Shown: positions 6,844 to 64,000, counted from the first letter of the stretch. The stretch is 64,000 bases of DNA from Candidatus Limnocylindrales bacterium (GCA_035571835.1 DATNBU010000041.1:11955-75954), one strand, 5' to 3'. A program made the numbers and translations. Notes: generated by a model from the sequence alone, not told the origin.

Positions 6844-8850
6844 ATGCGCGCTGCATGCATCGCAGCCGCGATGAACCTCATCCTGATCACGGGCCTGCCG
6901 GGGAAAGCTGCAGCCGCAGCCGCTTCCAGAAGCGCAACGGCTTCCACGAGCGCAACTTCTGCAAAAGATCCGCAGCATACCGAGGCGCAGCGCCTTCCGG
7001 GTTTCCAGGGGCGTACGCTCGACGGCAAGACGCTGTCGACCGCATCGTTCTCCGGCAAGCGGCTGCTGCTGCTGTGCTTCAATCCCGGCATCGCGCAGTC
7101 GGCGGCGTATGCGCAGGCGCTTGCGAACCTTGCGCCCGAGCGAAGCCGCAACAACTTCGAGATCGCCGGCGTTGCGATGGGGCTCGATCCCGCGGACGCG
7201 CGCGCATTCGCCGCGAAGCTCAAGCTCGACTTCCCGATCTTCGACGACTCGGACGCGACGATCGCGGGCGGCCTCGGGCTGCAGGCTCCGGTGGTCCTGC
7301 TTGGCGTCGACGCCGAAGGTCGCGTCGGCATGGCGATGCTCGGCTTCGAGCACGAGCAGGAGATCCCGGCGGTTGCCGTTGAAGATCACGTCCGCGAGTT
7401 CCTGCGGCTTCCTCGCGCTGACACCGTAACCGGCGGCGCGCTCGATCCGCGGCCGAAAGCGCCGCCGTTCGATGCCGAGCGTCTGAGCGGAGGCGACCGC
7501 TTCCGGCTATCCGATCTGTCGGGCAAGCCGGTGGCGCTGGTGTTTTTCATGCCGACCTGTCCGCACTGCCGCGATGCGCTGCGTTTCTTCAAGGGCGAGC
7601 TTGCGCGCATGCCCGAGAAGAATCGTCCGGTGCTGGTCGGAGTATCGATGGACAGCCGCGCGTACTCGGTCGAATCCACGCTTGCGGAAGAGAAGCTCGA
7701 CTTCTTTCCGGTGCTGCTCGATGCGGACCGCAGGATTGCCTCGGCCTACGGTTCGTTCGCGGGAGTTCCCGACATCGTCCTGATCGATGCGACGGGGCGT
7801 ATCGCGTTCCGGAGCAAAGGATGGAGCGAGGAGCCCGACGCAAGACTGATGCGGATGCGCCTTGCGCGCCTGGCCGGCGCCGAAGTGCCGATGCTGCTCG
7901 ACTCGCACGGATTCAGCGGCAACGACACGTGCGCCATCTGCCATACGATGGAAGCGGCCGCGTGGAAGTACACCGAACACTCGGTCGCATTCGACACGCT
8001 CGTGACGCGCGGAGCAGATCACGATCCGAAATGCGTCGGCTGCCACGTCGTCGGCTTCGGCCAGGCCGGCGGGTACTCCGAAGCCGCGCGCCAGCAGAAC
8101 CTCGAGAACGTCGGATGCGAGACGTGCCACGGCAAGGGCGGCGGACATCTGGACGCGCGATCGAAAACCGCCGGCGGGGCGGCGGCGGTCGACTATCGGT
8201 CCGCCTGCAAAGGCTGTCACGACCCGCAGCATTCGCTCGGCTTCGAGTACGAGAAGTTCCTGCCGAAAGTCTCGCACGCGGCCATCGCCGCGCTCAGCGA
8301 CGCGGAGCGAGAGAAGCTGATCGCCGGACGAAACCGTCCGCGTGACCTGCTGCCGACGGGGTCGGCCGTCGTCGGCTCATCGGCGTGCAAGACCTGCCAC
8401 GAGCATGAATACTTCCTGTGGTCGACGACGGCCCACGCGCGCTCGGTCGAAAGCCTCCGAAAGGAGCGCAAGGAATCGAAGGCCGAGTGTCTTCGCTGTC
8501 ACGTGACGGCCTACGGGCGCCCCGGCGGTTTTCCCGACGGCGAGCCGGTGCGTGCGCACGAGGATCTCGCACGCGTCGGTTGCGAGTCCTGCCACGGCGC
8601 GGGGGCCGAGCACGTGAAGAGCGGCGGCAAGCAGCTTGCCGGCATCGTAACGCTCGGCGACAAGTGCGACTCGTGCGTGATCCTGCAGATCTGCGGCGGG
8701 TGTCACGACGACGCGAACGATCCCGACTTCCGCTTCAACGTGACCCGCAAGATCGATCTCCAGCACCACGGGCGGGCGCCTGCGGTGCCGGAACGATCCG
8801 TTGATACGACGCGCGATACGAGCAGCGCCGCGACCAGCGCCGGCAACTAG
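6844..8850 (+). CDS. fusion protein: two thioredoxin/TlpA-like domains (second with CPHC) plus octaheme c-type cytochrome (8 CxxCH)
   Basis: The translation shows MPTCPHCRDALRFF...VPDIVLIDATGRIAF, a redoxin fold. Eight heme motifs follow: CAICH, CVGCH, CETCH, CKGCH, CKTCH, CLRCH, CESCH, CGGCH. Signal-like start MRAACIAAAMNLILITGLPG at 6844; an alternative start is 6766. Confidence 0.75.
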   Translation: MRAACIAAAMNLILITGLPGKAAAAAASRSATASTSATSAKDPQHTEAQRLPGFQGRTLDGKTLSTASFSGKRLLLLCFNPGIAQSAAYAQALANLAPERSRNNFEIAGVAMGLDPADARAFAAKLKLDFPIFDDSDATIAGGLGLQAPVVLLGVDAEGRVGMAMLGFEHEQEIPAVAVEDHVREFLRLPRADTVTGGALDPRPKAPPFDAERLSGGDRFRLSDLSGKPVALVFFMPTCPHCRDALRFFKGELARMPEKNRPVLVGVSMDSRAYSVESTLAEEKLDFFPVLLDADRRIASAYGSFAGVPDIVLIDATGRIAFRSKGWSEEPDARLMRMRLARLAGAEVPMLLDSHGFSGNDTCAICHTMEAAAWKYTEHSVAFDTLVTRGADHDPKCVGCHVVGFGQAGGYSEAARQQNLENVGCETCHGKGGGHLDARSKTAGGAAAVDYRSACKGCHDPQHSLGFEYEKFLPKVSHAAIAALSDAEREKLIAGRNRPRDLLPTGSAVVGSSACKTCHEHEYFLWSTTAHARSVESLRKERKESKAECLRCHVTAYGRPGGFPDGEPVRAHEDLARVGCESCHGAGAEHVKSGGKQLAGIVTLGDKCDSCVILQICGGCHDDANDPDFRFNVTRKIDLQHHGRAPAVPERSVDTTRDTSSAATSAGN

Positions 8851-41000: not shown

Positions 41001-41144
41001 ATGACACGTGCCGTTCCCGTCTTTCTCGCCGCCATCGCTTTGTTCGCCGCCTCTGCGCAGGCCAGCCCCGATCCGCTGACGACCTGCGGCAGCACCGTCG
41101 ATCCGGCGGCAAAGAGCTGGCGCGTCTGTCTCGACGACGAATAG
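41001..41144 (+). CDS. small secreted peptide (47-aa precursor; ~25-aa mature peptide with 2 Cys)
   Basis: RBS GGGAGG lies 6 nt upstream of the ATG. The signal peptide MTRAVPVFLAAIALFAASAQA is followed by SPDPLTTCGSTVDPAAKSWRVCLDDE. Confidence 0.5.
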   Translation: MTRAVPVFLAAIALFAASAQASPDPLTTCGSTVDPAAKSWRVCLDDE

Positions 41145-41220
41145 TTTTCTCAGACAGCTCGAATCTGGCGGGCGTTGCAGGTCGTACTGTCGACGCTCGG
41201 CGTTTCGGGAGATTTGTCGC

Positions 41221-41640
41221 ATGAGCTTCTTGTTTCGAGTTTTCGAGCAACGGCGAAAACGTCGGGTTCTGCGCCGGATGGTTGCCGAGCTGCCCAGGCT
41301 GCTTGCTCAGAGATATGGAAATTCGGACAGCTACTCACGCGCGCAAGTTCGTAAAACTCTCGAGGCAGCCGGCTATCGCGGACGCTATGTGGAGTACGCC
41401 TACGCGCTTTGTTTGAACGCGGCAGATGCCGAGCGCGAGCTGGACAACCGGGTCGTCTCGGCGCGACTTCGCAAAGAGCTGGCAGATGAGTTCTTCGACG
41501 GCGACACCGACTTCACCATAAAGCTGCGAAGGCGAGGAGAGGTGGGCAACTCGGCCCACACGTCGATTCCCCTGACGGATCAGGCACTCGGCGCCCGAAA
41601 CCACGGAATCACCGGCACTGCGGACGCCGACGTCCCTTAA
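41221..41640 (+). CDS. hypothetical protein (139 aa)
   Basis: Coding-like GC3. It starts 77 nt after the small peptide gene, and no domain was recognised. Confidence 0.4.
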   Translation: MSFLFRVFEQRRKRRVLRRMVAELPRLLAQRYGNSDSYSRAQVRKTLEAAGYRGRYVEYAYALCLNAADAERELDNRVVSARLRKELADEFFDGDTDFTIKLRRRGEVGNSAHTSIPLTDQALGARNHGITGTADADVP

Positions 41641-42167
41641 CAGCCCTGCAATTAAAGATTGCCGCGCGGCCCCGCTCTCTATTCAGGAAAAGAGACTGAA
41701 TCACTTCGACGTTTGTCGAAAGTGACATTCATCATTGCGCAGACCAAGCCATGTCACTACGACGATAGCGCTTGCGCAAGGACGTCGAGTCGTCAGCCGG
41801 CAGGCATTCTGAAGTTACTATCGTTCCAGCGCTGCCGGCAAATCACGTTCGTGCGGCGACGCGGAATAGACTGCGCTAGCCGCCGGGATTGCCGACGAGA
41901 ACGCCTGCGCTTCCAAAGGAGCGCGGGCGTTCTTATGTGCTACGCCGCCGCGCTGCGCTCGACTGAATTTGTTCTGCAAGATGTTCACCCCCGGAATCGG
42001 GGCTGCAGACTAAAATCGTTCGCATCGGCTCGGATTCGCAACGAATGGCGGTTTACAGAGCGGAGTCGGGTCCGCTATGAGCTTCGGCTCGCTGCCGCAC
42101 GGTGCGATCAAGGCGAACGTTGCTGCGCCTTTCGTCGCACACCGCGAGCTCTGCGGAGGAGCATTTG

Positions 42168-51256: not shown

Positions 51257-52147
51257 TTGCCGACCGAAGATATCAGCGCGCGATTTGCCGATCTCGATCT
51301 GTGGACGACCGGTGACGCGGTGCACGCGATGGTCGAAGACCAGCTCGCCGCTGTTGCAGCCGTGCAGTCGCAGGCCGCAAGGATCGTCGAAGCGGCCGAA
51401 CAGGCAGCAATCCGCCTCAGCGGCGCCGAAGGGCGGCTCATCTACGTCGGTGCGGGCACGTCCGGGCGCATTGCGGTGCAGGACGGAGTGGAGCTCGGGC
51501 CTACCTTTGATTGGGACCGCGTGGCGTATCTGCTGGCCGGAGGTTGGGATGCGCTGCGCTCGAGCGTCGAAGGCGCGGAAGATGACGCAGAGGCTGCCGA
51601 CGCGGCGATGCGCAATCTTGCACCGACCTCGCACGATGTGGTGATCGGCGTCGCTGCCAGCGGGCGCACCGCCTATACACTCGCCGCTGTTCGAACGGCG
51701 GCAGCCGCAGGCGCATTGACTGTCGGGCTTGCGAACAACGCGGGCACGCCGCTACTCGAAGCGGTCGATCATCCGATCCTGCTCGACACGGGCGCTGAGG
51801 TCATTGGCGGCTCGACGCGGATGAAGGCCGGAACGGCGCAGAAGATCGCGCTCAATCTTTTTTCGACTGCGGTGATGCTGCGACTCGGGCGGGCCGACAT
51901 GGGTCTGATGATCGATATGCGGCTGTCGAACCGAAAGCTGCGCGATCGTGCGGTGAGGATCGTCGCGCGGGCGGCCGGTGTCGAAGATCCGGTTGCCGCG
52001 GACGCTCTCGAAAAGGCGGGCAGCAACATCAAGCTGGCCGTGCTGATTGCTCATGGCCGAAGCCGCGACGAAGGCTCGGCATTGCTGCGGGCCGCGGGCG
52101 GGAAACTCCGTGCGGCGATCGAGCAGGCGAAGTCGCAACAACGCTGA
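51257..52147 (+). CDS. murQ: N-acetylmuramic acid 6-phosphate etherase
   Basis: YVGAGTSGRIA and GGSTRMKAGTAQKIALN are characteristic MurQ SIS-fold motifs. TTG start. Confidence 0.8.
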   Translation: MPTEDISARFADLDLWTTGDAVHAMVEDQLAAVAAVQSQAARIVEAAEQAAIRLSGAEGRLIYVGAGTSGRIAVQDGVELGPTFDWDRVAYLLAGGWDALRSSVEGAEDDAEAADAAMRNLAPTSHDVVIGVAASGRTAYTLAAVRTAAAAGALTVGLANNAGTPLLEAVDHPILLDTGAEVIGGSTRMKAGTAQKIALNLFSTAVMLRLGRADMGLMIDMRLSNRKLRDRAVRIVARAAGVEDPVAADALEKAGSNIKLAVLIAHGRSRDEGSALLRAAGGKLRAAIEQAKSQQR

Positions 52148-52264
52148 CGCGAGATCGCGCGAACCAGCACTCCTCGTCGCGGTGGCACGAGTCTGCAAGC
52201 GTCGCTTCAAATAAATCGCGCCGCTGACGTCATTCCTCGCCGCACTGGCGGTCTCTGTCGCGCG

Positions 52265-53023
52265 CTATGGAATGGTGGTCGTTGTAATGCCCGGCATTGT
52301 CGTCGTGGTAATGCTCGTCGTGGTTATCCTCGGCTCCGTGGTCGTGGTTATTCCCGGCACGGTGGTGGTGGTGATCCCCGGCATCGTGGTTGTGGTTATC
52401 CCCGGCATCGTGGTTGTGGTTATCCCTGGCACCGTCGTTGTGGTGATCGACGACGGCTCGCAGAGGTCTGCGCAGACGCCGGAAGCACCGCAACACGTGT
52501 TGATGATGCAGACCTGACCTGAGCCGCAGTCCTGGCTGTCGGTGCATGGAAACAAGCAGAGGCTGTTGAAGACGCACTCCCCACAGGTCGTCTCCGTGGT
52601 CTGGTTCCGATAACACCCGAGCTCCGGATTGCACAGCGGCGATGAGCCGCAGGTCGCGTCCGAGCAAGGAATCGTCGTCGTGGTGATGCTGATGGTGGTG
52701 GTCGTCGTCGGCGGCGGCAACGTTGTCGTCACGGTCACGCACTGATTCTCGATGCAAAGGTCCCCTGGCCCGCATACTCCGCAATCGATCGGTGTACCGC
52801 AGCCGTTGCTCGCGCTGCCGCACTGCAGTCCTTGCTGCGCACAGCTTTGCGCGCCGCAGCAGGTTCCGAGTCTGTCGGACGGGTTCCGTTTCAAGCACAG
52901 GTTGCTGCTGCAGACTCTGTCGACGGCGCAGGTCGCACCACCTGGTCTCCCCGCAGGGCCGGCAACACCCACGGTTGCACACAAAATGATCATCAGCAGC
53001 GAAGCCGTTGTTGCTGTCTTCAT
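52265..53023 (-). CDS. secreted Cys-rich / Thr-rich repeat protein (TTTT-x-PGI tandem repeats)
   Basis: Signal peptide MKTATTASLLMIILCATVGVAG. Cys-rich module CCGAQSCAQQGLQCGSASNGCGTPIDCGVCGPGDLCIENQC followed by Thr-rich repeats. Confidence 0.7.
   Translation of the reverse strand: MKTATTASLLMIILCATVGVAGPAGRPGGATCAVDRVCSSNLCLKRNPSDRLGTCCGAQSCAQQGLQCGSASNGCGTPIDCGVCGPGDLCIENQCVTVTTTLPPPTTTTTISITTTTIPCSDATCGSSPLCNPELGCYRNQTTETTCGECVFNSLCLFPCTDSQDCGSGQVCIINTCCGASGVCADLCEPSSITTTTVPGITTTTMPGITTTTMPGITTTTVPGITTTTEPRITTTSITTTTMPGITTTTIP
52270..52460. repeat. tandem ~27-nt DNA repeats (CCCCGGCATCGTGGTTGTGGTTATC-like) encoding the TTTTxPGI peptide repeats on the minus strand
   Basis: At least six near-identical adjacent units read in the sequence. 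Confidence 0.8.
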
Positions 53024-53190
53024 GGAACCCCCTGCGACGGAAGATTTGAGTAAGAGCGAAATTCTTCACCCTTGTGACTGAGGCTCACTCGCACAGTTTC
53101 ACGGCTCAGGAAGTCCGACAAGATCTTTGGGAAATATGATTCTGACGTCTCGTGCGAATCGCTGCACACGCTTGGTGCGCGAGATCATCC

Positions 53191-53264
53191 GACACGAGAG
53201 CTGCGACACGAGAGCTGCCGACACGAGAGCTGCCGACACGAGAGTTGCCGACACGAGAGCTGCG
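53191..53264. repeat. 5 x ~15-nt tandem repeat GACACGAGAGCTGCC in a divergent intergenic region
   Basis: gacacgagagctgc / gacacgagagctgcc x2 / gacacgagagttgcc / gacacgagagctgcg, read directly between the starts at 53023 (-) and 53582 (+). Confidence 0.8.
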
Positions 53265-53581
53265 CCATTCGGGTGATATTTGCTGCGGGCCGCGGGCGGG
53301 ATCGTCGCGAGCGATCGATCGGGGGAAGCCGGAATGACCGTACAACCACCGGAGGCCCGGACAAGGCAATCATTCGCGCCAAAAGTTTTTACGACGCGGG
53401 CGCGTCACGCGCTGGATCAGAAGGGCAGGCTGGACCAACCCTCATCGAGCCAAAGATAAAAGACAGTGACGCTACACAAGCCCGTTGGCCTCGCTTTTCG
53501 GCCATCGTCCCTGCAAAATCCTGCGACGTGTGCCGCAGCGGAAGAATGCCGCGGCGTAGCAGGGGCGAGGAGGAGTTCCCC

Positions 53582-54109
53582 ATGAGCATGAGAGCAATCG
53601 TCGGCATCACGTTTCTGCTGACTGTGTCGTTCGTCCTTCCCGACAGCGCGATTGCCCGCGGCAAGCCGAACGGCGCGATGTGCCACGTGAGCAAGAGCTG
53701 CAGCAGCGGCGTCTGCACGCGCATTCATCCCGAGGACAAGTTCGGGGAATGCTGTGCGCCGCAGGATTGCGCCGAGCTCGGGCGTCAATGCGGATCCGGC
53801 ACGGACAATTGCGGACGTCCGCTCGACTGCAGCGAATGCGGACCCGGCTTCACCTGCGTGAACTTCCAGTGCGAGTCGGGCACGACGACCACGACGACGA
53901 CGACGTCCACGACAAGCTCGACGACTTCCAGCACGAGCTCGACGACGTCTTCGACGAGCACCTCGAGCACGTCGTCGACGACGACGACGTCAACCACATC
54001 GACGACGATGCCGCCGGTGTGCGCATTCCCGGGCCAGGACTGCACCATTATGCCGTGCTGCTTCGGCGGCTGCGTTTCGCTCGAGGGACAGATGACTTGT
54101 GCGTTCTGA
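53582..54109 (+). CDS. secreted Cys-rich / Ser-Thr-rich protein, paralogous module to 52265..53023
   Basis: RBS GGAGGAG precedes signal peptide MSMRAIVGITFLLTVSFVLP. CCAPQDCAELGRQCGSGTDNCGRPLDCSECGPGFTCVNFQC aligns with the Cys module of the upstream divergent gene and is followed by a poly-S/T linker. Confidence 0.7.
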   Translation: MSMRAIVGITFLLTVSFVLPDSAIARGKPNGAMCHVSKSCSSGVCTRIHPEDKFGECCAPQDCAELGRQCGSGTDNCGRPLDCSECGPGFTCVNFQCESGTTTTTTTTSTTSSTTSSTSSTTSSTSTSSTSSTTTTSTTSTTMPPVCAFPGQDCTIMPCCFGGCVSLEGQMTCAF

Positions 54110-54156
54110 GCCTTGGCGGATGCTGAAGCTCATCAGCCTTATCCAGGGATCCCGAA

Positions 54157-54771
54157 GTGCAGCTCAGCCGGCCAGATAGCCGGCTGAGCTCGCACGCGAG
54201 TCGCGGAGTTGCCCGCTGGGCTCCGCCCGTTCTGTTCGTCGCAGTTGCGATCGTGCATCTTCACCAGACCCTTACCGCCGATCTCAATCCGTGGTTCGGC
54301 GGCGGGTTCGCAATGTTCTCTACGACGTACCGGCCATGGCCCCAGGCGTTGTCGATCGAAGCGGACGATGCCTCGGGCAAGCACTATCTCTCGAGCTGGA
54401 TCCCGCAGCGTTTCGGCGCGACGGGACTTTTCGCTCGCGAGAGGCTTCTGGCCCAGCCGGACCGCGAGTCTCTTACGTCGCTTGCAGAGTACGCGCTGCG
54501 ATCCTCGCGCCGCGGCGGCGCGGCACCGCGGCAGGCTCTCGCTGCCGTCGAGAACGCTGGCCTTCTCGAGCGGGTTCGCTTTCGAGACGCGGATGCCGGC
54601 GCGATCGCGAAGATCGAACCTTTGATGACGGGCCCGGATGCCCGCGCATCGTCCGACCTCGTGCTCGTGCATGCGCGCGCACGTGTGTGGAGGCTTGCTT
54701 TCGACGGCAGAGAGGCGCGCTTCACGGCGATGCCGATCGGAGAGGCCGGCGAGGCAGACCTCGCGAGGTGA
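54157..54771 (+). CDS. hypothetical protein with N-terminal membrane anchor
   Basis: 204-aa ORF. Its stop overlaps the GTG start of the next gene (GTGA). Confidence 0.45.
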   Translation: MQLSRPDSRLSSHASRGVARWAPPVLFVAVAIVHLHQTLTADLNPWFGGGFAMFSTTYRPWPQALSIEADDASGKHYLSSWIPQRFGATGLFARERLLAQPDRESLTSLAEYALRSSRRGGAAPRQALAAVENAGLLERVRFRDADAGAIAKIEPLMTGPDARASSDLVLVHARARVWRLAFDGREARFTAMPIGEAGEADLAR

Positions 54772-55682
54772 ACGCTCCGTCCGCGGTCTCCGCCGTTGCG
54801 GACGATTTGCTCGCGCAGCCGCACGGGCGAACGACACTGCGCCTGACGGCCCTGTTCCTGCTCGCGACGACGCGCATCTTCTTCGCATGGCATCCGATCA
54901 GTCTTCTCGCCGCGGTAATGGCGGTGCTGATGCTGCTGAGCCCGCGCGTTCTCGTGAGCCGCTGGGCCTGGGCCGTCGTCGTGGCTGCCGTCGGTTACGG
55001 CCTGGTTGCCCGCTGGCCGGCGTCCGAGAACAACCGGTTTCTCGACTTCTACTGGCTGCTCGCGTGCTGTCTCGCCGTCGGCTTCCCGGATGACGAAGCC
55101 GAGAGCCTGCTCGCCCGCCACGGCCGCCTGCTGATCGGCCTTACGTTTGCGCTCGCTGCGACGCAGAAGGCTCTGCGTGGCGAATACTGGGACGGCGCCT
55201 TCATGCACGGGCTGATCCTGTGGGACGAGCGCTTCCGCAGCGTCGCGATGACTCTCGGAGGTCTCGACGCGAAGGATCTGCTCGCGAACACTCAGCTGAA
55301 GAATGCGCTCACCGCAATGCCGTCGGCCGTCGAGAGTGTCACGCTCATCACGAGCGACAGGCTGCGTGCGGTCGCCTTGGTGCTCGGCTACTTCGTTCTT
55401 ACTCTCGAGGCCGCAGTAGGATTGTCGTTTCTGCTGCCGCGTCCGCGCTGGTTCGCGCGCTACCGGCACTATCTGCTCTTTCTGTTCGTGCTGCCGACGT
55501 ACCTGCTGGCGCAGGTGTCGCACTTCGGAATCGTCCTGGCCGTCATGGGTTTCGCGCAGTGCCCGGCCGAACGGCGCAGGCTTCGGCTCGCGTACGTGCT
55601 GGTGTTCGTGTTCCTGTGCTTTGCGGATTTTACCGGGCCGCTGCTCGTCGGCTCATTCTTTGGCGGACGCGTCGCGGGATAG
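54768..55682 (+). CDS. polytopic membrane protein, hypothetical
   Basis: The downstream, strongly hydrophobic part of ORF 54291..55682, translationally coupled to 54157..54771. The upstream part of the long ORF overlaps that gene in another frame and was rejected. Confidence 0.5.
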   Translation: MNAPSAVSAVADDLLAQPHGRTTLRLTALFLLATTRIFFAWHPISLLAAVMAVLMLLSPRVLVSRWAWAVVVAAVGYGLVARWPASENNRFLDFYWLLACCLAVGFPDDEAESLLARHGRLLIGLTFALAATQKALRGEYWDGAFMHGLILWDERFRSVAMTLGGLDAKDLLANTQLKNALTAMPSAVESVTLITSDRLRAVALVLGYFVLTLEAAVGLSFLLPRPRWFARYRHYLLFLFVLPTYLLAQVSHFGIVLAVMGFAQCPAERRRLRLAYVLVFVFLCFADFTGPLLVGSFFGGRVAG

Positions 55683-55697
55683 CCCGCGGCGATCGTC

Positions 55698-57716
55698 TCA
55701 GAACTCGAAGGCTTCGACTGGAATATCTCGCGCCTTCTCGCATTCGGCCTTGAAGTCGTAGGGCACCTCGCCGGCGCAGTCCGGCCACTGTCCGCTCGAT
55801 AACCAGAACTCGACGAGGCCGAGCCGCGCGCAAAGCGGCACGAAGCGCGGATCACTCCGCAGCTCGGGCATGCCGGCGTGAAAGAGCAGGGCGGTGCGGT
55901 AGCCGTCGGGGCCCATGATGTCGTCGGCCGCTCCGCGCGGCCCGAGACGAGCGCCCTCGGCGATGCGGTAAGCCTCGTCGACGAGGCCGAGGTGCGCCGC
56001 GTACACGAGGCGCGAGACATCGACGCCGCCGGTCCTTTGGAAATGCTCCTCGAGCGCGCGCCGTATGCCGCCGATGCGCTCCGGCGTCGGATCGCGCTTG
56101 GCCTGGATGAACGTGACGCCGTCCTGGAATTCGCGCAGCGGAAAGTTCGCCGCCGGGTCGAGAATGCGATCGACCGCCGCCCAGTCCCCGAGAAACGCTT
56201 TGGCCCGCAGCAGATTCGCGACGGGGAAACTCATCTCCGGCACGCGTTTCATCAGGTCTTCGAGATCGGGCACGGCTTCCGCGACGCGTCCGGCGGCCAT
56301 TCTCGCCAGCGCGATCATGTTGCCCCAGCCCGGATTTCGCGCGTCGAGCCGATAGGCTCGCTCGGTCTCTTCGAGGCTCTCGCGAACCAGGCCGACGTTG
56401 CGGATGTACCAGCCGAGAAAAATTCGGCCGGCTCCGACACCGGGCGTGCGCCGGATGCGCTCGACGATCGGCACGTGCTCGCCGAAACGTCCGAACGGCG
56501 CGATCGTAAACAGCCGCGCGACGAGAGCATCTTCGTTCTGCGGATCGAGCGTGAGAGCGCGGTCGCATTCGCGCGCAACGAGGTCGGCGTTCGCCGCGCG
56601 TTCGGCGAACGGCTGGTAGAAGCGCAGCCACGCGCGCAGGTACGCGAGCCGGCCCCAGGCCTCCGCGAAGTGCGGCGCGCGCTGCGTGGCGATGTCGAGG
56701 AGGCCGACGTTGGTGCGCAGCTCGTCGGGTGAGAACGAGTGAGGGCTGGCCCGCAGGTAGAGGTCGTAGACCGCCGGATCGATCGCTTTGGTCGAAAAGC
56801 TCGTGAAGGTGCGGTCTAGCGCGGCCGCGATCTCCTCGGAGATCTCGTCCTGCACGGCGAACACGTCCTCGAGGCTCCGGTCGTAGCGCTCCGACCACAG
56901 GATCGTTTGCGAAGCGGCTTCGACGAGGTTCGCCGAAATGCGCACGCGCCCGCCGGCGCGCCGGATCGAGCCGTCGAGGATGTGCGTGCACCTGAGCTCG
57001 TCGGCGACCTTGCGCGCAGTCTTGTCGGCGCCGCGGAACTGAAAGCTCGAAGTCCGGCCGATCACTTTCATGCTGGCGCCGCGCGCCAGGCGCTGGATGA
57101 TGTCTTCGGAGACGCCGTCGGAGAAGAACTGCATCTCGCGGTCGTCCGAAAGGTTGTCGAACGGGAGCACGGCAAGCAGCGGCTCGCGGTTTCTCGGCGC
57201 AGCGGCCGACACCGCGGCTCCCACAGCGGTAAGCGCAAAGGCCTCGATCGTCTCGGACATCTTGTCGAGCTGAAGATCGCCGCGCGAGACGAGGCGTTCG
57301 GCAAGCGGGCCCCGGATCGTGCGCCGCACGTCGGCCGAGACGAGCGCGGAGCCGGGATCGCTGCGAGCCATGAGGCGGGCCGCAACATTGACGCCGTGGC
57401 CGAGCAGGTCGCCGCCCGGCTGGACCACGACGTCGCCGAGATGCACGCCGACGCGCACCTTCGGCACGCACTGCGCGGCCAGCGCGAACGCGACTTCGAC
57501 CGCGGCCACGCTCGACCCGAACTCGAGCATGAAGCCGTCGCCGGCGCTGTTGAAGATGCGGCCGCCGCGCGGGGCGGCGATGCTTTCGATTACGCTGCGC
57601 AGTGCCGCGACTTCGGCAGTGGTGGCGTCTTCGTCGGCTTCGGTTCGCGCGGAGTAGCCGGCGACGTCGAGGGCGACGATGGTGGTCAGGCGGCGGGGGC
57701 GCGGGTCTTCAGGCAT
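55698..57716 (-). CDS. class III adenylate/guanylate cyclase domain protein with C-terminal TolB-N-like and TPR-like regions
   Basis: Cyclase core IVALDVAGYSARTE...FNSAGDGFMLEF...VRVGVHLGDV...GHGVNVAARL. Confidence 0.75.
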   Translation of the reverse strand: MPEDPRPRRLTTIVALDVAGYSARTEADEDATTAEVAALRSVIESIAAPRGGRIFNSAGDGFMLEFGSSVAAVEVAFALAAQCVPKVRVGVHLGDVVVQPGGDLLGHGVNVAARLMARSDPGSALVSADVRRTIRGPLAERLVSRGDLQLDKMSETIEAFALTAVGAAVSAAAPRNREPLLAVLPFDNLSDDREMQFFSDGVSEDIIQRLARGASMKVIGRTSSFQFRGADKTARKVADELRCTHILDGSIRRAGGRVRISANLVEAASQTILWSERYDRSLEDVFAVQDEISEEIAAALDRTFTSFSTKAIDPAVYDLYLRASPHSFSPDELRTNVGLLDIATQRAPHFAEAWGRLAYLRAWLRFYQPFAERAANADLVARECDRALTLDPQNEDALVARLFTIAPFGRFGEHVPIVERIRRTPGVGAGRIFLGWYIRNVGLVRESLEETERAYRLDARNPGWGNMIALARMAAGRVAEAVPDLEDLMKRVPEMSFPVANLLRAKAFLGDWAAVDRILDPAANFPLREFQDGVTFIQAKRDPTPERIGGIRRALEEHFQRTGGVDVSRLVYAAHLGLVDEAYRIAEGARLGPRGAADDIMGPDGYRTALLFHAGMPELRSDPRFVPLCARLGLVEFWLSSGQWPDCAGEVPYDFKAECEKARDIPVEAFEF

Positions 57717-57828
57717 GGGCGGGCTCGGCGCTTCCTCCTTTGCAATAGGGAGTGGAGGAATGCCACACTCGCCCGGTCCGGTCCGTGACCGGGGACCTCA
57801 GCTTCGTCCGAAATTTGATGGAGGGACC

Positions 57829-59229
57829 ATGATCATTCTCGCTCGCGCGCTCGCGCTTGTCGTACTCGTCTGCAACGCGGCTGCCGCCGGAACGCTGTAT
57901 GTCTCCGCTTCGGCCGGAGACGACGCCAATGCATGCACGCTGGCCGCGAGTCCCTGCAAAACGGTGGGGCGGGCGCTGGACGTCGCCGTCTCCGGAGACT
58001 CGGTGCAAGTCGCGCCCGGCACCTACACCGAAAGCAACTCCGTGATCAATGCGGGCGACATAGAGATCTCCGGCGGGTGGGATGACGGCGTGTCCGATCC
58101 GAACGACGCTACCGTGATCGAGCCTCGGCATGATCGAGGCCTGGCGTTCACCTACGACGGCACCAATTCCGGTACCGTCGCGCTTCGCGACCTGACGATT
58201 CAGAAGACCCGGTACGGACACCGCTCCGACCTCGTCAACGCGTACGGCGACAACACGTACAGCGCGTACGGCGGCGGGTTGTTCGTCCTCGCGAGCGGGA
58301 ACGCCTCGGTCGGCGTCGTCATCGATCACGTCTCGTTCGTGAAAAACAGGAGTCCGTTGGGCGGTGGCGCGGCACTGATCGCCTCCGGCGATGCGAGCAT
58401 GACGGTGACGGTCGCAGACAGCGTTTTCTCCAAGAACAGGGCGTCTACCGCAGGCGGCCTCTTCGTTCTCGATGACAGCGCATTGATGCCCAACATCAAT
58501 GTCGAACGGACGGTATTCTCGAAAAACAACGGAACGGGAGCCATCTCTGCCCTGTTGGTTGCTGTACGACAGAAGACGGAAACCACCTCTACGGTTCTGC
58601 TCTCGCGGCTTACCTTCCAGGAGAACAGGGGTGGGACTGTCGACGTCGACGTGCGTGGCGGCGAACTGGATCTGCAGCTCGAAAACAGTGTTTTCGTGAA
58701 CAACACGAGCATCGACTGGGGAACGGCACTTTTCGCCATCGCGGGTCCGAACGCCGTGCCGGACGGTGCCGGCGGATACCAGCATGTGCCCGGCCATCTT
58801 CGCGCTACGTCGGTCAACAACAGCGTGAGCCACAACTCCGGTCGCATTCCCGCGCTCGTCGTGGAAGCAGGCAACTTCGGGTATCAGCCTGCGCAGATCG
58901 AGTTCGTGTCCACCAACGACATCATCTACGGGAACGCCGGTGGGGATGTGCTGGCGGTAAGCTACTTCGGCGCCCCTGTGAACCTGACGCGAGGGAACGG
59001 GATCCAGGGGCCGGCCTCGGGGGCATCCGAGGACGTCACCATCGTGAACAACAATATTCTCAACGTGGACCCGCGCTTTCAGAGCGCAAATTCGGACCTG
59101 CATCTGCGGGCGGACTCTCCCGCGATCGACGCGGTCTCGTGCGCGGCTTCACCGGCCGAGGACTTCGACGGTGAGGTGCGGCCGCAAGGCAGTCAGTGCG
59201 ACATCGGTGCCGACGAGTACGTTCCGTGA
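57829..59229 (+). CDS. secreted right-handed parallel beta-helix repeat protein (DUF1565/pectate-lyase-fold-like)
   Basis: RBS GGAGGGA precedes signal peptide MIILARALALVVLVCNAAAAG. N-terminal segment GTLYVSASAGDDANACTLASPCKTVGRAL, and the C-terminus ends ...CDIGADEY, typical of this fold family. Confidence 0.65.
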   Translation: MIILARALALVVLVCNAAAAGTLYVSASAGDDANACTLAASPCKTVGRALDVAVSGDSVQVAPGTYTESNSVINAGDIEISGGWDDGVSDPNDATVIEPRHDRGLAFTYDGTNSGTVALRDLTIQKTRYGHRSDLVNAYGDNTYSAYGGGLFVLASGNASVGVVIDHVSFVKNRSPLGGGAALIASGDASMTVTVADSVFSKNRASTAGGLFVLDDSALMPNINVERTVFSKNNGTGAISALLVAVRQKTETTSTVLLSRLTFQENRGGTVDVDVRGGELDLQLENSVFVNNTSIDWGTALFAIAGPNAVPDGAGGYQHVPGHLRATSVNNSVSHNSGRIPALVVEAGNFGYQPAQIEFVSTNDIIYGNAGGDVLAVSYFGAPVNLTRGNGIQGPASGASEDVTIVNNNILNVDPRFQSANSDLHLRADSPAIDAVSCAASPAEDFDGEVRPQGSQCDIGADEYVP

Positions 59230-59253
59230 CGCTCTAAGGTCCGCTCACGACGG

Positions 59254-60579
59254 TCATGGCAGACACGTCCCTTCGCAGTGGAGCTCGAAGTCCTTGCACT
59301 GCGCCACCGCGCCGCCCGTATCGCAGCAGCAACCACCTCGCGGCAGCCCCGCCGGACCCAGGCACTGGGAGCTGAACGAGCATGCCGAGTCGGCGACCTG
59401 CTTCGGTCGACACGCCCCTGACGTGCAGAACTGTTCGTCGAGATTGCAGTCGGAGTCCTCGTCGCACGGGGACCCCAGACATACGCCGCCAAACTGGTCA
59501 GGATCGCCGCATTCGCATGTGCCACCGGAGATCCGGATGCACTTGTCCTGCGTGCTGCACACGCCAGTCGAAGTCGCTGTGGAACAGCAACACTCGGGCG
59601 GCCAGTCTCCGTCCACGAACTCATCCCCACCACCGCACGCGGAGGTAGACGAACAAGGGGAATCGAGCTCTTGCTTCATGCGACAGACGCCTCCACTGCA
59701 GAACTGCGACTCAACGGCACCGCACTTGTCGCTCTCGGTAGCCGTGTTGCAGTCATCGTCGCTTTGGCACGCCGTACCCGGGCACTGCGCGAGACTGAAG
59801 ACAGCAGCGCCCGCCCGGGATGCGGTCGTGCAGTCAGAAAGCGTGTCGCAGAATCCGAGACCTACGCCGGTAACACAGTTCTCGGCGTCATTCAGGACGC
59901 AGCAGCATCCGGACAGGCAATCGTCGTCCGCCCGGCACCCGCGACTCAGGCTGAGCCTGTCCTCGCACTTGCTCCTGGGAGTGATGCATCGCTGCGTTGC
60001 ACTGCAGTCGGAGTCGTCGGAACACTGAGTCGTGCAGTCAACTGTCCCTCCGCAGCCGTTCGCGATCGTTCCGCAGGTCGCCCCGACGTCGTCGCACGTC
60101 AGCGGCGTGCAGCCGCAGACGTTCGGCGTACCACCACCTCCGCACGTATCGGGTACGGCGCAGCTGCCGCAGCTCAGGCGTCCGCCACAGCCGTTGGAAA
60201 TCGTGCCGCAGGTTTTCCCCTGAGCCGCACACGTCGTCGGCGTACAGCCGCAGACGTTCGGCGTCTCCGCCCCACAGGTCTCCGGGAACGTACAGGTGCC
60301 GCAATCCAGCGTGTCAGGACAAGTCCCGTTGGGAATGCTGCCGCAGTTTTTGCCCTGCGCGGCGCACGTCGTCGGCGTACAGCACGTACCGAACGATTGA
60401 GAGCCCGGCGGGCCGGCGCCGACGCATGTCCGGCTGCAGCAGCTCTTGTTGCTCAGACATGGCTGGCCGGCTGGCCGGCACGGGTCGGCTTGGGCTGCGC
60501 GCGCAACGAGCGCGGCGGCAAGGAGGAGCGTGAGTGAGAGAGCACGGCAGAACAGGTTTGCGTGAGAGGATTGCCTCAT
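59254..60579 (-). CDS. secreted cysteine-rich repeat protein (repeated C..TTCAAQGK.CG.I.NGCGG.L.CG.C..P.TCG....NVCGC units)
   Basis: Signal peptide MRQSSHANLFCRALSLTLLLAAALVARAAQA. At least 3 tandem Cys-module repeats are related to the Cys module of 52265..53023 and 53582..54109. Confidence 0.7.
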   Translation of the reverse strand: MRQSSHANLFCRALSLTLLLAAALVARAAQADPCRPAGQPCLSNKSCCSRTCVGAGPPGSQSFGTCCTPTTCAAQGKNCGSIPNGTCPDTLDCGTCTFPETCGAETPNVCGCTPTTCAAQGKTCGTISNGCGGRLSCGSCAVPDTCGGGGTPNVCGCTPLTCDDVGATCGTIANGCGGTVDCTTQCSDDSDCSATQRCITPRSKCEDRLSLSRGCRADDDCLSGCCCVLNDAENCVTGVGLGFCDTLSDCTTASRAGAAVFSLAQCPGTACQSDDDCNTATESDKCGAVESQFCSGGVCRMKQELDSPCSSTSACGGGDEFVDGDWPPECCCSTATSTGVCSTQDKCIRISGGTCECGDPDQFGGVCLGSPCDEDSDCNLDEQFCTSGACRPKQVADSACSFSSQCLGPAGLPRGGCCCDTGGAVAQCKDFELHCEGTCLP

Positions 60580-61089
60580 GACGTCCTCCGTTCGATCCGG
60601 GGCGGGAAAGCGCAGCTCAGCGGTGCGTGGGTGTTTCTTAGCTGTCGTCGTTTTGACTTGTCGAGCGCGGCGCGCACCTGACAGAGTCGGCAGCGTCGGA
60701 AAAATGAGATCGAGCTACCGCATTGGGTGATACATAGAGGTGCGCTTAAGCGAAGTCCGAGCGATACCCAATTCCGCGGCTGGTCGTCCACCGGCCGCAG
60801 CTGGCGCCTCGAAAACTTGATCGGAAATCCTCGAAGCGTTCCGCGCAACCGGTGTCGATCAGCCGCCCGCTGGCTGATGCTCGACCGAGAGGCGTCCGTC
60901 GACGCTGCGCACGGTCCTGCACGCTTTAGCCTTCTCTACATTGCAGGTGATCGATCCTCGGAATGACACCAATGCGCGCGCACCCACGGCCGCGGGCATC
61001 GACGAGATCGAATGGAAATCAGTGAGCCTCCGGATTTCGGATCCTACGGACTCATTACTCCGACGAGCGCCGGTGTGGGAGCCCAATGC

Positions 61090-61810
61090 TTCTGGCTGTT
61101 AACCAGTAGATGCGCTTGCCACTTCGTGGTTAACAGCAAATGTTGTCCACTCTCACGATTCTCTCCCCGAAGTTGAGCCTGTGGCGCCCGTGAGCGTGAC
61201 GCGCGGGTAAAGTGATCCAAAAGAAAAGCCTGCGCCACGTTCCCGCGGGCAGGCTTCTCAGTCTGAGAGCACATCGGCTCCAATGTCTCCGGAACAATCC
61301 GGAGTATCCTTCAGGTTGACGACCTTTTGGGAAAGTGCCGCAGCCAGGTCACGCTCGGCGGCACCGGATCTGGCCCGGTGGCGTTTCCATTTCTTACTCC
61401 TCGATCACCACGAGCAACCTCCTTGCGGTGCTCAATCTGCAAAAAAAACACATGACGCTAAAGCGTCATGTCGAGAGGTGCACTTCTGATTTGGCTGTGT
61501 CAATCGACGTCCTCTCTGAACTCGAATTAATCAGTTAGTTAGAGGTACCGCGGCTTGGTGTAGGCGCTTCCATCGTCAACACGTCCTGCAACTCGGCGTT
61601 TTCTGGTTGGATCCGGTAGGACCTAGGCTCGAGCCATCGCTCGAGTACCGAGCCTGTTAACCACTCGCCATACTCATTGACGGTTGGTTAACAGATTCTG
61701 TTAACCGCTGCCCCGACTCTCTCACCGGAGAGGCGTCCTGAGAGCGAAATTCGGCCTCGTCGTCATCAAAACGGCTCTCTCAGCCGCTGCCTTGGTTAAC
61801 AGCGGGGCGT
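61090..61810. repeat. six copies of a 10-bp GTTAAC-centred motif (CTGTTAACCA / TGGTTAACAG), arranged as inverted pairs, in a gene-free low-GC stretch
   Basis: Copies sit near 61093 and 61132 (inverted pair), 61640, 61667 and 61679 (back-to-back), and 61795. A degenerate copy (CTGGTTAACTG) sits at 63483. Confidence 0.6.
61436..61470 (-). terminator. rho-independent terminator-like hairpin (CATGACGC-taaa-GCGTCATG) followed on the minus strand by a T8 run
   Basis: The + strand reads gcaaaaaaaacaCATGACGCtaaaGCGTCATGtcg. No gene was called nearby, so it may terminate an unannotated ncRNA. Confidence 0.4.
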
Positions 61811-62176
61811 CGAGACGCTGCCACTCGAACCCGCAAACCCTCGCGACATCGCGCAGGTTTCGGGCCGCTCCTTGCGGGGAGGCGGCGCGGCTCATCCGCA
61901 GGGAGAGAAAGGGTCGAACCCGCAGAGAATTTATTCGCGGCGGAGGTGTTACCGATGTGTCCGGTATGAAATGACACCTATGTGACCGGGATAGACTTTA
62001 GAGGATTGGCTCAAGCGTATGTCGGCAAGATTCGCTAGAGCCCCTCGATTACCTACTACGCCATGGTAAGAGCGAGCTCGGCCGACGCGCAGCATCATAG
62101 GAGACTCGTGGACAAGGGTTAAGTTGAGTTGAAAGGTCTGATCGCTGGGGCGAGGCTCTTATTCAGAGGAGAGGGA

Positions 62177-62659
62177 ATGGCTACCTACTTAACAATCGCG
62201 ATCGGTCTGATCTGGGTCGCGAATCTGGTTTGTTTGCTCATGATCTACTCAGCGCGCAGTAGGATGAAGTCCGTACTCAGTCTTGATCAATTCTCGCTGC
62301 CTTCAAATCAGACTCTTGCCATATTGCAGAAGCACAGCCGAGCGAGCGAACATCTCCGAGGCTACATCGTAAACAACGCGCCGTGCCTAATGTTTCCTCA
62401 TGGTGCGAGTATGTTTTCTCTCCTCATCACACTCGCCGGCTGGGTCTGCGTTGTTCTTACAATTCTTGCATTGATGAATCGAGAATGGACGCACGTGGCT
62501 GTGTTGGTCGCGACATGGCTCGCGTGCAACTTCTGTGGGTCAAGATTTAATCAGAATCTAATGTACGAAGAAGCGCTGAAAGCGATTCACATAGAGGACC
62601 GAGGGGTTTTCAAGACCTGGCTTGATCAATTCCATCGCGACTACAACGCCGCGAGATAG
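62177..62659 (+). CDS. small membrane protein, hypothetical (low-GC island)
   Basis: RBS GGAGAGGG precedes ATG 62177 (the ORF track starts at TTG 62129). Three or four TM helices. GC content is lower than the rest of the window. Confidence 0.5.
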   Translation: MATYLTIAIGLIWVANLVCLLMIYSARSRMKSVLSLDQFSLPSNQTLAILQKHSRASEHLRGYIVNNAPCLMFPHGASMFSLLITLAGWVCVVLTILALMNREWTHVAVLVATWLACNFCGSRFNQNLMYEEALKAIHIEDRGVFKTWLDQFHRDYNAAR

Positions 62660-62839
62660 AATGCGGGCCGCTAGGCGATATGACGGACGCGGAGAGATGC
62701 GTAGTTCAGCCGGCGGCCGCGACGTCTAGGGTCGTTCCGCTAGTATACAGCCCACCCGGTCGATGGCGCACCGATAGCAGATCTTAACTAGTCTCAGGCT
62801 TCTCCTGCGAGAGAAGTCTTTGCAGAGGGGCGAAGATCC

Positions 62840-63382
62840 GTGAAGGTTTCAGTACACGGACGAATTACCCAGGACGCTGAAGGGCAAGACCAAGCGCCTT
62901 TAACCATCGGCAGAGCGCGGGAGAAGCGGACTATACTGTTGAAATTGAGCCCTGGGTACGATCCTGCGAGTTCAGAACCAACTCGACCGTTTGGCGAGGA
63001 TGAATCGCCGATCGATGGACCGTGGGCGTATCGGGGATACTTGTTGCTGGTTGACGACGGAAGCGACGTGTCACTTGATGAAGCAAAGTTAAAGATTAAG
63101 CACGTCGTACTTAGCCGCGACAAAGGGTTCGATAAGATGCGGCGCGAGCTTGAGGCGCTTCAAAACGTCGAGAGAGTTGACGGGGCACGGCGCGAACGAA
63201 TTCCCGATTCGGTACGGCTTTTCGTCTGGCAACGCGACCAAGGAAAATGTGTCCGGTGTGGATGCAACAGCAAGCTGGAGTTTGACCATATCGTTCCGGT
63301 GATCAAAGGCGGCAGCGGCACCGAACGGAACGTCCAGCTTCTGTGCGAGCAGTGCAATCGCTCAAAGGGTTCAGATATCTAG
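62840..63382 (+). CDS. HNH endonuclease
   Basis: C-terminal CVRCGCNSKLEFDHIVPVIKGGSGTERNVQLLCEQCNRSKG is a classic HNH motif with a Cys4 zinc finger. GTG start. Confidence 0.75.
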   Translation: MKVSVHGRITQDAEGQDQAPLTIGRAREKRTILLKLSPGYDPASSEPTRPFGEDESPIDGPWAYRGYLLLVDDGSDVSLDEAKLKIKHVVLSRDKGFDKMRRELEALQNVERVDGARRERIPDSVRLFVWQRDQGKCVRCGCNSKLEFDHIVPVIKGGSGTERNVQLLCEQCNRSKGSDI

Positions 63383-63528
63383 GTGCACCGGCGTCCTAGC
63401 GCCTGTTGACCAGCCGAAGCTCTCGATGCCGAGTCGGAATTCGGCCTGATGAGGCACCATACGGTGCTCTCAGCCGGAGTGCTGGTTAACTGCGTGGCGC
63501 CGAGTGTCAGCTAGTCGACCTCGCTCAA

Positions 63529-63849
63529 TCACGCGCTAGCGGCGCGAAAGAACTTCGCAAACGACGCCAATAGCGCTTTCGGTTGATTGCTGCCGGGCAG
63601 ATCCTCGCGCCCCAAGAGTACGTCCACGCTAACTTTGTAAAGGCGAGACGCTTTAAAAAGAATTTCAATCGGTAGCGTCCGCTGTCCCTTTTCAATCTGC
63701 GCAAGATAGCTATGGGAGATCCCGAGCTGCACCGCGGCGACCCGCAATGATAGCGCTCGCAGCCGTCGGGCGGCTTCGAGCTGTCCGCCGACGATCTGCC
63801 GGAGCTCTACCGGAAACTGAGACGAAAACTCACGCATTACGACGTTCAT
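63529..63849 (-). CDS. XRE family helix-turn-helix transcriptional regulator
   Basis: LRALSLRVAAVQLGISHSYLAQIEKGQRTLPIEILFKASRLYKVSVDVLL matches the HTH_XRE pattern. Confidence 0.7.
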   Translation of the reverse strand: MNVVMREFSSQFPVELRQIVGGQLEAARRLRALSLRVAAVQLGISHSYLAQIEKGQRTLPIEILFKASRLYKVSVDVLLGREDLPGSNQPKALLASFAKFFRAASA

Positions 63850-64000
63850 CCTCTGCCGGCACGTCCTCCAACGTAACCTGCGCTAATTCCGGAATGTCAA
63901 GTGACAGCATCTTGCTGCACGAATTTGGCCAGTGCGAACGGATCTGCTCGATTGCCCACTCTGCATCAATGATTGCTGCATTGATTTGAGGGCTGTCTCG

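Follow-up and report, generated by a model that had tools for sequence, protein, structure and literature searches.

Among mapped islands inserted in tRNA genes (tDNA islands), crossover sites centred on the anticodon form the commonest class, with 2083 of 3919 islands (PMC4383910). Cis-mobilizable elements (CIMEs) are cargo segments which keep att repeats without integration or transfer genes and pile up as one after another integrates at a regenerated att site. They are recognised by att sites common with a known functional integrative and conjugative element (ICE) or integrative and mobilizable element (IME) (PMC5704250). In the pdif modules of Acinetobacter plasmids, inversely oriented sites bound small cargo, often toxin-antitoxin or accessory genes, and the host XerCD acts in trans; the pdif sites are 28 bp long (11-6-11) and resemble chromosomal dif (PMC6449649). 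Here we report on a stretch of 64,000 nucleotides from a genome labelled Candidatus Limnocylindrales (GCA_035571835.1, contig DATNBU010000041.1, 11955-75954), hereafter the window, which near its end carries several copies of a conserved non-coding element of ~265 bp.

The 10-bp cores of this element are identical to the anticodon loop of tRNA-Asn(GTT) (CTGTTAA) together with the first bases of the 3' anticodon stem. The copies lie at the borders of small cargo modules in a lower-GC, strain-variable island. Tentatively, we favour the reading that they are att-type sites derived from tRNA-Asn which bound accreted cargo, the recombinase acting in trans or having been lost.

Architecture and conservation of the element

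The 10-mers CTGTTAACCA and TGGTTAACAG occur eight times in the 64-kb window (five exact, three with one mismatch), all of them in 61096-63492. The expected number is 0.51, and none of 100 shuffles reached eight. All seven GTTAAC sites of the window fall inside the same 2.4-kb span; outside the element, 0 were observed and ~3 expected, which is not significant. The first-pass annotation of this DNA had described six motif copies in inverted pairs within a 1.5-kb stretch free of open reading frames (ORFs). All six were located (61096, 61127, 61654, 61685, 61698 and 61793) and 60580-62128 contains no convincing ORF. Two things had been overlooked: the repeat is far larger, the 10-mers being only its invariant cores, and the further copy reported at 63483, which exists with one mismatch, has a partner at 63403 (CTGTTGACCA). 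The attention drawn to GTTAAC as HpaI recognition sequence led nowhere, as no methylase or restriction gene was found beside the window copies and nothing points to a role in restriction-modification.

The full element consists of an inverted pair CTGTTAACCA-N21-TGGTTAACAG, 3 bp, a 105-bp unit which starts CTGTTAACC, finishes GGTTAACAG and has a second inverted pair at its ends, and a tail of 110 bp (Table 1). Past the window end (64000), coordinates were continued through overlapping contigs and are given as window-equivalent positions. L001, a 16.3-kb contig reached via the HNH protein encoded in the window, shares 7160 identical bp with the window and extends 9.2 kb past it. It holds three more cores at window-equivalent 64834, 64865 and 64973, with the same spacing as 61654/61685/61793; centre to centre, the cores are 31 and 95 bp apart.

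An nhmmer profile recovers three independent full copies, namely B-C in the window, E-F in L001 and a copy in the metagenomic locus L013 (3248-3515). B-C and E-F are ~80% identical on alignment, and the L013 copy is 62-70% identical to B-C. Partial copies were found in the window at 61094-61172 (A; profile positions 3-81, E=5.6e-9) and 63435-63535 (D; positions 96-196, E=3.4e-9) and, outside it, at L013 3172-3235, L002 5200-5285 and L008 7830-7906. Copy A has exact cores at 61096(+) and 61127(-) and is 72% identical to 61685-61730. Copy D has no 10-N21-10 pair, and the 3' end of the XRE gene overlaps its tail. The profile detected no element in the window beyond A, B-C and D; the other 60 kb are free of it. 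The copies in the window all point the same way, and from each core of the array to the next the orientation flips without exception.

Across the three independent full copies 37 of 40 core columns are invariant, compared with 52% of the other columns (Fisher p=4e-7). The N21 spacers have no common sequence, although their length is kept at 20-22 nt. A guide or target role for them was considered and rejected, since they match nothing beyond chance in ~150 kb of collected sequence.

The element is non-coding. Several reading frames are open throughout the copies, substitutions are spread evenly over the three codon phases without codon periodicity (all phase tests p>0.1), and copies differ by 1-nt indels, not by multiples of three. 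A minus-strand small ORF at 61722-61895 (57 aa, in which a core encodes 'APLLT') is open in three copies and was rejected for want of a codon phase and because of the 1-nt indels. Translated pseudo-ORFs of the element have no homologue in a database of 5.8 billion proteins, and the same pseudo-ORF search yielded no further element copies.

The first-pass annotation had suggested that the ORF-free stretch might encode non-coding RNA. This found no support: with Rfam 15 there were no matches at gathering thresholds, nor any to the element when E<=1 was allowed, and comparison of the copies shows no conserved promoter or terminator signal, including a sigma-70-like promoter in or beside them. A group I intron or tRNA-like structure was likewise dismissed, Rfam being null on the element and ARAGORN finding no tRNA in the window, L001 or the further contig L015. 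The functional unit could still be a folded single strand rather than the duplex, that is, a hairpin in single-stranded DNA (ssDNA), as in attC or the attP of CTX phage, or in RNA. In folding, every inverted pair outperforms shuffled sequence (z=-2.5 to -4.1; copy D as ssDNA, z=-4.1 and -3.3). The stems are invariant, and the 21-nt loops keep their length while their sequence changes, like the variable terminal structure of attC; the tail hairpin shows a few compensatory pairs, and a minus-strand terminator lies 183 nt beyond copy B. Several properties make such a folded element improbable. Alignment folding gives similar values for both strands (-44 vs -52 kcal/mol), with covariation terms near zero from only four sequences. 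As ssDNA, the 105-bp unit has a 9-bp closing stem followed by a branched interior, and the unit flanks beside the cores repeat in direct or mirror form (GCTGCC, CTCTCTC) rather than inverted. An integron attC site was rejected on the same grounds: TGTTAAC/GTTAACA fit RYYYAAC/GTTRRRY at only 5/7 positions, and there is no R-box/spacer/L-box geometry, no L box, no extrahelical bases and no intI within reach.

Since the units are bounded by perfect 10-bp inverted repeats that begin TG and end CA, measure 41-105 bp and occur in several copies in one genome, a miniature inverted-repeat transposable element (MITE) was considered as well. The cores would then be the terminal inverted repeats of a non-autonomous transposon with its transposase encoded elsewhere. 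We consider this very improbable. A target-site duplication is absent at every copy, the copies are clustered within 4 kb, and the 41-bp unit, the 105-bp unit and the 110-bp tail always travel as one conserved composite, which is extremely rare in public data.

Table 1. Features of the element array and its surroundings. Positions are counted from the first nucleotide of the window.
Feature	Position	Strand	Description
Partial copy A	61094-61172	+	10-N21-10 pair 61096-61136, degraded junction, first ~35 nt of long unit
Terminator-like hairpin	61217-61258	-	hairpin then TTTTCTTTT; read directly from the sequence
Intrinsic-terminator-like hairpin	61440-61471	-	9 bp, loop of 4, + T8; A8 run precedes hairpin on plus strand
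Full copy B-C	61651-61914	+	pair B, 3-bp gap, unit C, 110-bp tail; nhmmer E=9.6e-84
Inverted pair B	61654-61694	.	CTGTTAACCA-N21-TGGTTAACAG; spacer length conserved, spacer sequence not
Palindromic 23-bp junction	61685-61707	.	TGGTTAACAG-ATT-CTGTTAACCG (10-3-10)
105-bp unit C	61698-61802	+	closed by CTGTTAACCG ... TGGTTAACAG; conserved internal blocks GACTCTCTCNCCGGAGAGGC, CTGAGAGCGRAA
Conserved 110-bp tail	61803-61914	+	contains CGCAAACCCTCGCGACATCRCGC and a hairpin with compensatory changes
Small membrane protein gene	62177-62659	+	160 aa (176 aa from TTG 62129); no known family
Stand-alone HNH endonuclease gene	62840-63382	+	180 aa; PF01844 E=1.1e-11
Partial, older copy D	63403-63535	+	90-bp unit CTGTTGACCA ... 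TGGTTAACTG and first ~45 nt of tail
XRE-family helix-turn-helix (HTH) gene	63529-63849	-	106 aa; PF01381 E=1e-10; second gene of two-gene minus-strand operon
Multi-pass membrane protein gene	63830-64000, on to window-equivalent 64693	-	281/287 aa; no known family; stop overlaps XRE start
Full copy E-F	window-equivalent 64832-65095 (L001 7992-8255)		3.2 kb downstream of B-C, past the window end

Immediately to the right of the E-F tail, a 200-bp block (L001 8264-8463) holds two exact direct repeats ATTTTGTCACCAAAAAC, 24 bp apart (L001 8335-8375, window-equivalent 65175-65215), and two weaker copies downstream. They look iteron- or operator-like. A decayed version of this repeat block follows the B-C tail (61915 to ~62100).

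Identity with tRNA-Asn and a possible role in recombination

Loci were collected by exact-pattern scans of 185,579 species genomes (~600 Gb) for the 10-N20-22-10 pattern, and a metagenome collection was scanned besides. The genomes yielded ten loci with the pattern, of which only L002, from a Kofleriaceae metagenome-assembled genome (MAG), and L008, from a Myxococcales MAG, share the extended architecture. Both are labelled Myxococcota. The remaining eight are unrelated hairpins or chance matches, so the idea of a genome-wide palindrome family was given up. The metagenomes added one independent locus, L012/L013 (JADMIO01; the same sequence in two orientations), and thus only four independent loci carry the element in the two collections together. 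The 10-3-10 junction is present in L002, L008 and L013 as well as in the window. The four loci share no protein, and a common partner protein was discarded as an explanation. The source genome being labelled Chloroflexota, this conflict of labels may reflect cross-phylum spread of the element by horizontal transfer or mis-binned MAGs.

In L002 the composite is followed by ~230 bp homologous to unit and tail and then by an intact tRNA-Asn(GTT) gene on the minus strand (5456-5530; ARAGORN, Rfam 66.7 bits), so that the element lies 230 bp downstream of the tRNA. The anticodon stem-loop of this tRNA, GGCGG-CTGTTAA-CCGCC, contains the motif and provides the last core. On the same (minus) strand, downstream of the tRNA, two copies match its positions 28-48 at 20/21, and an inverted plus-strand copy matches its 5' side at 13/14. 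By these matches, the flanking copies in L002 are decayed tRNA-Asn gene fragments, the signature of displaced tDNA fragments. They are placed like the displaced 3' fragments of tDNA islands but enclose only ~280 bp of non-coding DNA. The copy with homology to the tRNA 5' side is inverted relative to the 3'-side copies, as expected after inversion between inverted sites. L002 also shows tandem duplications at 5130-5213, where there are two copies of CTGTTAACCA at a distance of 12 bp and two of a 32-bp unit made up of tRNA-fragment spacer and TGGTTAACAG.

The other two loci differ in context. In L008 the element is interrupted (7887-8000) ~35 nt into the long unit by what on inspection looks like an IS3-family element with its transposase gene (ORF starting MRKSKFTEEQ). 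L012/L013 has a full and a truncated copy between a gene for a 406-aa hypothetical protein and the core gene tpx, which stands directly against the element tail. Its neighbourhood is rich in defence functions: a 931-aa Mrr_cat-nSTAND1 NTPase, an 884-aa T5orf172-ResIII helicase, MmeI- and Eco57I-like methylases and a HerA/DUF87 fragment.

A close relative, L014 (GCA_034680565.1), allowed the two sides of the element to be compared between strains. It is 87-91% identical over window 52191-59253. From 59254 to window-equivalent ~65103 the sequence is replaced in L014 by entirely different cargo; homology resumes exactly after the E-F tail for 200 bp (81.5%; L014 11958-12157) and is then lost again. 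Beyond this block L014 has lower-GC cargo encoding DUF2026, DUF6602, HTH-M78 and other proteins, so genes differ between the two strains on both sides of it. Of the element itself, L014 keeps only a decayed trace of unit and tail, with no cores. Judged from this trace, the element predates the split of the two strains, the DNA on both its sides having been exchanged. The segment replaced begins at 59254-60579 (-) with a gene for a 441-aa secreted, extremely cysteine-rich repeat protein without Pfam family. This gene has host-like GC, but its absence from the otherwise syntenic L014 places it in the strain-variable segment.

The motif had been proposed in the first-pass annotation as an operator, att or recombinase site. 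The XRE operator is not supported (see below); an att or recombinase site is best supported, because the motif equals the anticodon loop of tRNA-Asn, a classic integrase target. We infer that a site-specific recombinase, most likely a tyrosine recombinase which would naturally target the tRNA-Asn anticodon loop, would bind and cross over at the cores. Repeated integration at a regenerated site would stack small cargo modules with an element copy at the border of each. Cargo modules are indeed separated by copies A, B-C, D and E-F, all in one orientation. Those stacked here would be a membrane protein with the HNH protein, a membrane protein with the XRE protein, and further hypothetical genes. 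The enzyme may be supplied in trans or may have been lost, by analogy with integrase-less CIMEs or Xer-dependent pdif modules. The clustering of the copies, with none elsewhere in the window, fits insertion into a regenerated site, where clustering is expected.

Several observations weigh against recombination at tRNA-derived sites. Pfam, NCBIfam and PADLOC, run on the sizeable ORFs of 60.5-74.7 kb and of the neighbourhoods in L002, L008, L012 and L013, detected no recombinase within reach of any copy. The window and the 10.8 kb beyond it contain no tRNA gene (ARAGORN on the window, L001 and L015, together reaching window-equivalent 74.7 kb), hence the array is not at a tDNA. Outside L002 similarity to the tRNA is limited to 10-12 bp; the window copies match the anticodon region over 10-12 nt in both orientations. 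Classical tDNA islands give direct repeats, whereas the cores here alternate at fixed distances of 21, 3 and ~85 bp, which simple integration does not explain, and with strictly alternating cores simple excision between neighbouring sites is unlikely. Such an arrangement would be more like a multi-site synaptic complex, as at a res or IRS site, than like a simple att core. No excised, empty-site or inverted isoform was observed, and four independent loci give low comparative power.

Cargo, neighbouring genes and limits of the island

Of the genes predicted at the right-hand end of the window, the HNH nuclease and the XRE regulator are confirmed, each matching the corresponding Pfam family (Table 1). 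The product of 62129/62177-62659 has, by inspection, three hydrophobic segments. In its HNH domain the nuclease is most like IscB and Cas9, with scores far short of the cut-offs for those families. For the pair formed by the protein with three transmembrane segments and the HNH protein (62177-63382) PADLOC gives only weak restriction-enzyme-like matches; it could be an uncharacterised defence pair. The arrangement of membrane protein and XRE gene resembles an abortive-infection or toxin-antitoxin pair. The 281/287-aa membrane protein has no homologue among 5.8 billion proteins except the identical protein of the source genome, and an attempt to trace cassette mobility through its homologues was dropped for this reason.

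The HNH and XRE genes had been described as divergent with a motif copy in their intergenic region. They are in fact convergent, 3' end to 3' end, which means that the copy at 63483 is not in a promoter region. This bears on the view that the element is a cis-regulatory module, a portable promoter or operator for the gene to its left, in which the cores are operator half-sites of a dimeric factor, either an XRE protein or a host factor. In every locus a gene on the minus strand starts 55-535 nt to the left of the first core (a cyclase in L008, 55 nt; the 281/287-aa gene at copy E-F, which begins at window-equivalent 64832, 141 nt upstream; the 406-aa gene in L013, 97/176 nt; an XRE gene in L002, 533 nt). 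At 23 bp the palindromic 10-3-10 junction is of a size that would suit an operator, the cores are spaced by nearly whole numbers of helical turns (31 and 95 bp), and XRE genes lie near the element in 2/4 loci. We nevertheless think a cis-regulatory role unlikely. The two XRE proteins share only a generic HTH (28% over 50 aa) and are not orthologous, L013 and L008 have no XRE gene nearby, and no relationship links the various leftward genes. Of the copies, only E is upstream of the operon with the XRE gene; D sits where two genes converge, at the 3' end of XRE, and after B comes DNA without genes. A conserved sigma-70-like promoter is missing from the copies and their flanks, and the tRNA-Asn fragments of L002 and the association with cargo turnover would be left unexplained. 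On the same evidence, the earlier proposal that the XRE protein binds the motif is not supported.

Between copies A and B lies 481 bp of gene-free filler (61173-61650) with two minus-strand terminator-like hairpins and nothing obvious for them to terminate. The hairpin with T8 had been noted before as an orphan terminator; it is present, on the minus strand. The other (61217-61258) gives a weak, sub-threshold match to ctRNA_p42d (24 bits against a 50-bit cut-off, E=0.04). Minus-strand cargo since lost may have left this filler as its 3' remnant, or a leftward transcript through B-C may end in it.

Over the first 60 kb GC content is 63-70%; between 61 kb and the window end it is 53-57%. The abrupt drop placed at 60.6 kb by the first-pass annotation is real, although its best single change-point (65.1% to 57.3%) is ~300 bp further right, at ~60.92 kb; the segment 60581-61095 still has 61% GC. 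Past the window GC remains at 51-63% to about window-equivalent 72.5 kb and returns to 66% in the final 1.5 kb read, which comes from the 192-kb source contig, reached via the identical 281-aa cargo protein. The lower-GC island is thus ~11.5 kb long (~60.9 to 72.5 kb), with ~8.5 kb of it past the window end. An isolated TAGTTAACCA at window-equivalent 72335 was considered as its right-hand boundary and discarded, an 8-mer match being expected ~0.5 times per 16 kb. Elsewhere in the window, where the surroundings have 65-68% GC, there are further dips at 41001-42000 (0.60) and 52001-54000 (0.61-0.63). The latter contains ORFs 52230-53069 and 53273-54109 without Pfam family, and both dips lack element cores.

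This region had been taken for the regulatory end of a prophage or ICE continuing past the window. An island of lower GC with an HNH gene, an XRE gene and repeated sites does continue there and is strain-variable. The downstream sequence largely refutes the remainder of the proposal, and we regard it as extremely improbable. The search for integrase, recombinase or structural genes recommended at the time was run: the genes found past the 281/287-aa gene encode a 367-aa hypothetical protein, a HEAT-repeat protein, a 262-aa hypothetical protein, an S-adenosylmethionine (SAM) methyltransferase, an ABC-transporter operon and a 319-aa hypothetical protein, with no integrase, recombinase, phage or conjugation gene in 10.8 kb. 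Scans of viral contigs with four conserved patterns gave 0 matches, and BLAST against phages and plasmids gave none.

Comparison with known systems

A further-reaching possibility, rather improbable in our estimate, is a new gene-capture system akin to integrons and pdif modules. Small defence and accessory cassettes would be inserted, stacked and exchanged at composite sites that mimic the tRNA-Asn anticodon loop, by a recombinase whose gene lies elsewhere in the genome. The tRNA-Asn gene would be the ancestral or primary docking site, and the system would be shared by Chloroflexota- and Myxococcota-labelled MAGs. If the main recombination reading is right, the element would be a compact means of gathering and exchanging defence-type genes without an integrase, at a site patterned on the anticodon loop of a tRNA. 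It would take an intermediate place among tDNA islands, integrons and pdif modules, and would do so in soil and freshwater lineages that have been little studied. The 265-bp profile with its four invariant cores would then offer a handle for tracing the missing recombinase by co-occurrence, and could map cargo boundaries in MAGs where integrase-dependent island prediction normally fails. Should the recombination reading be wrong, the element would still be an unreported conserved non-coding repeat with cores under strong constraint.

By the Islander criteria (PMC4383910), the locus resembles tDNA islands in several respects. The core is the anticodon loop, in L002 the intact tRNA-Asn gene is followed by same-strand displaced 3'-half fragments, and element copies bound lower-GC, strain-specific cargo with several modules in tandem. 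It differs in that no integrase was found in or near any module, the intact tRNA or tmRNA gene expected at one end is present in L002 but not at the window array, the cores alternate at 21/3/85 bp instead of being direct, tRNA identity outside L002 spans 10-12 bp, and the 'island' of L002 between tRNA and fragments is only ~280 bp of non-coding DNA.

Like CIMEs (PMC5704250), copies A, B-C, D and E-F bound modules without a recombinase. The repeat here, unlike theirs, is a 265-bp composite with four cores and not a simple attL/attR pair. No autonomous ICE, IME or phage sharing the element was detected in the genome and metagenome collections, four viral scans or phage and plasmid BLAST, all of them exact-pattern or BLAST searches of limited sensitivity.

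What the array has in common with integron arrays and clusters of attC sites lacking integron-integrases (CALINs) is short, lower-GC cassettes, set apart by sites of 60-140 bp which are imperfect inverted repeats and have GTT in the core. Copy D stands 21 nt after its cargo ORF, and there is no integrase nearby, as in CALINs; no intI or attI was found in the last 25 kb of the window or the 10.8 kb beyond, and a CALIN would not need intI. Differing from integrons, the interior of the unit is conserved between copies, each full copy adds a 41-bp second hairpin and a 110-bp tail, and cargo orientation is mixed.

A dif/Xer site was examined by inspection and rejected: the only palindrome is 10-3-10, and aligning GTTAA to the XerD arm makes the arms overlap. 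From the pdif modules (PMC6449649) the element is further set apart by a site which resembles a tRNA anticodon loop and is embedded in a larger conserved composite with a tail, and by its chromosomal context in Chloroflexota- and Myxococcota-labelled MAGs. With them it shares the organisation in module arrays, bounding sites in inverse orientation with strictly alternating cores, modules without a recombinase of their own, and a content which is shuffled between relatives.

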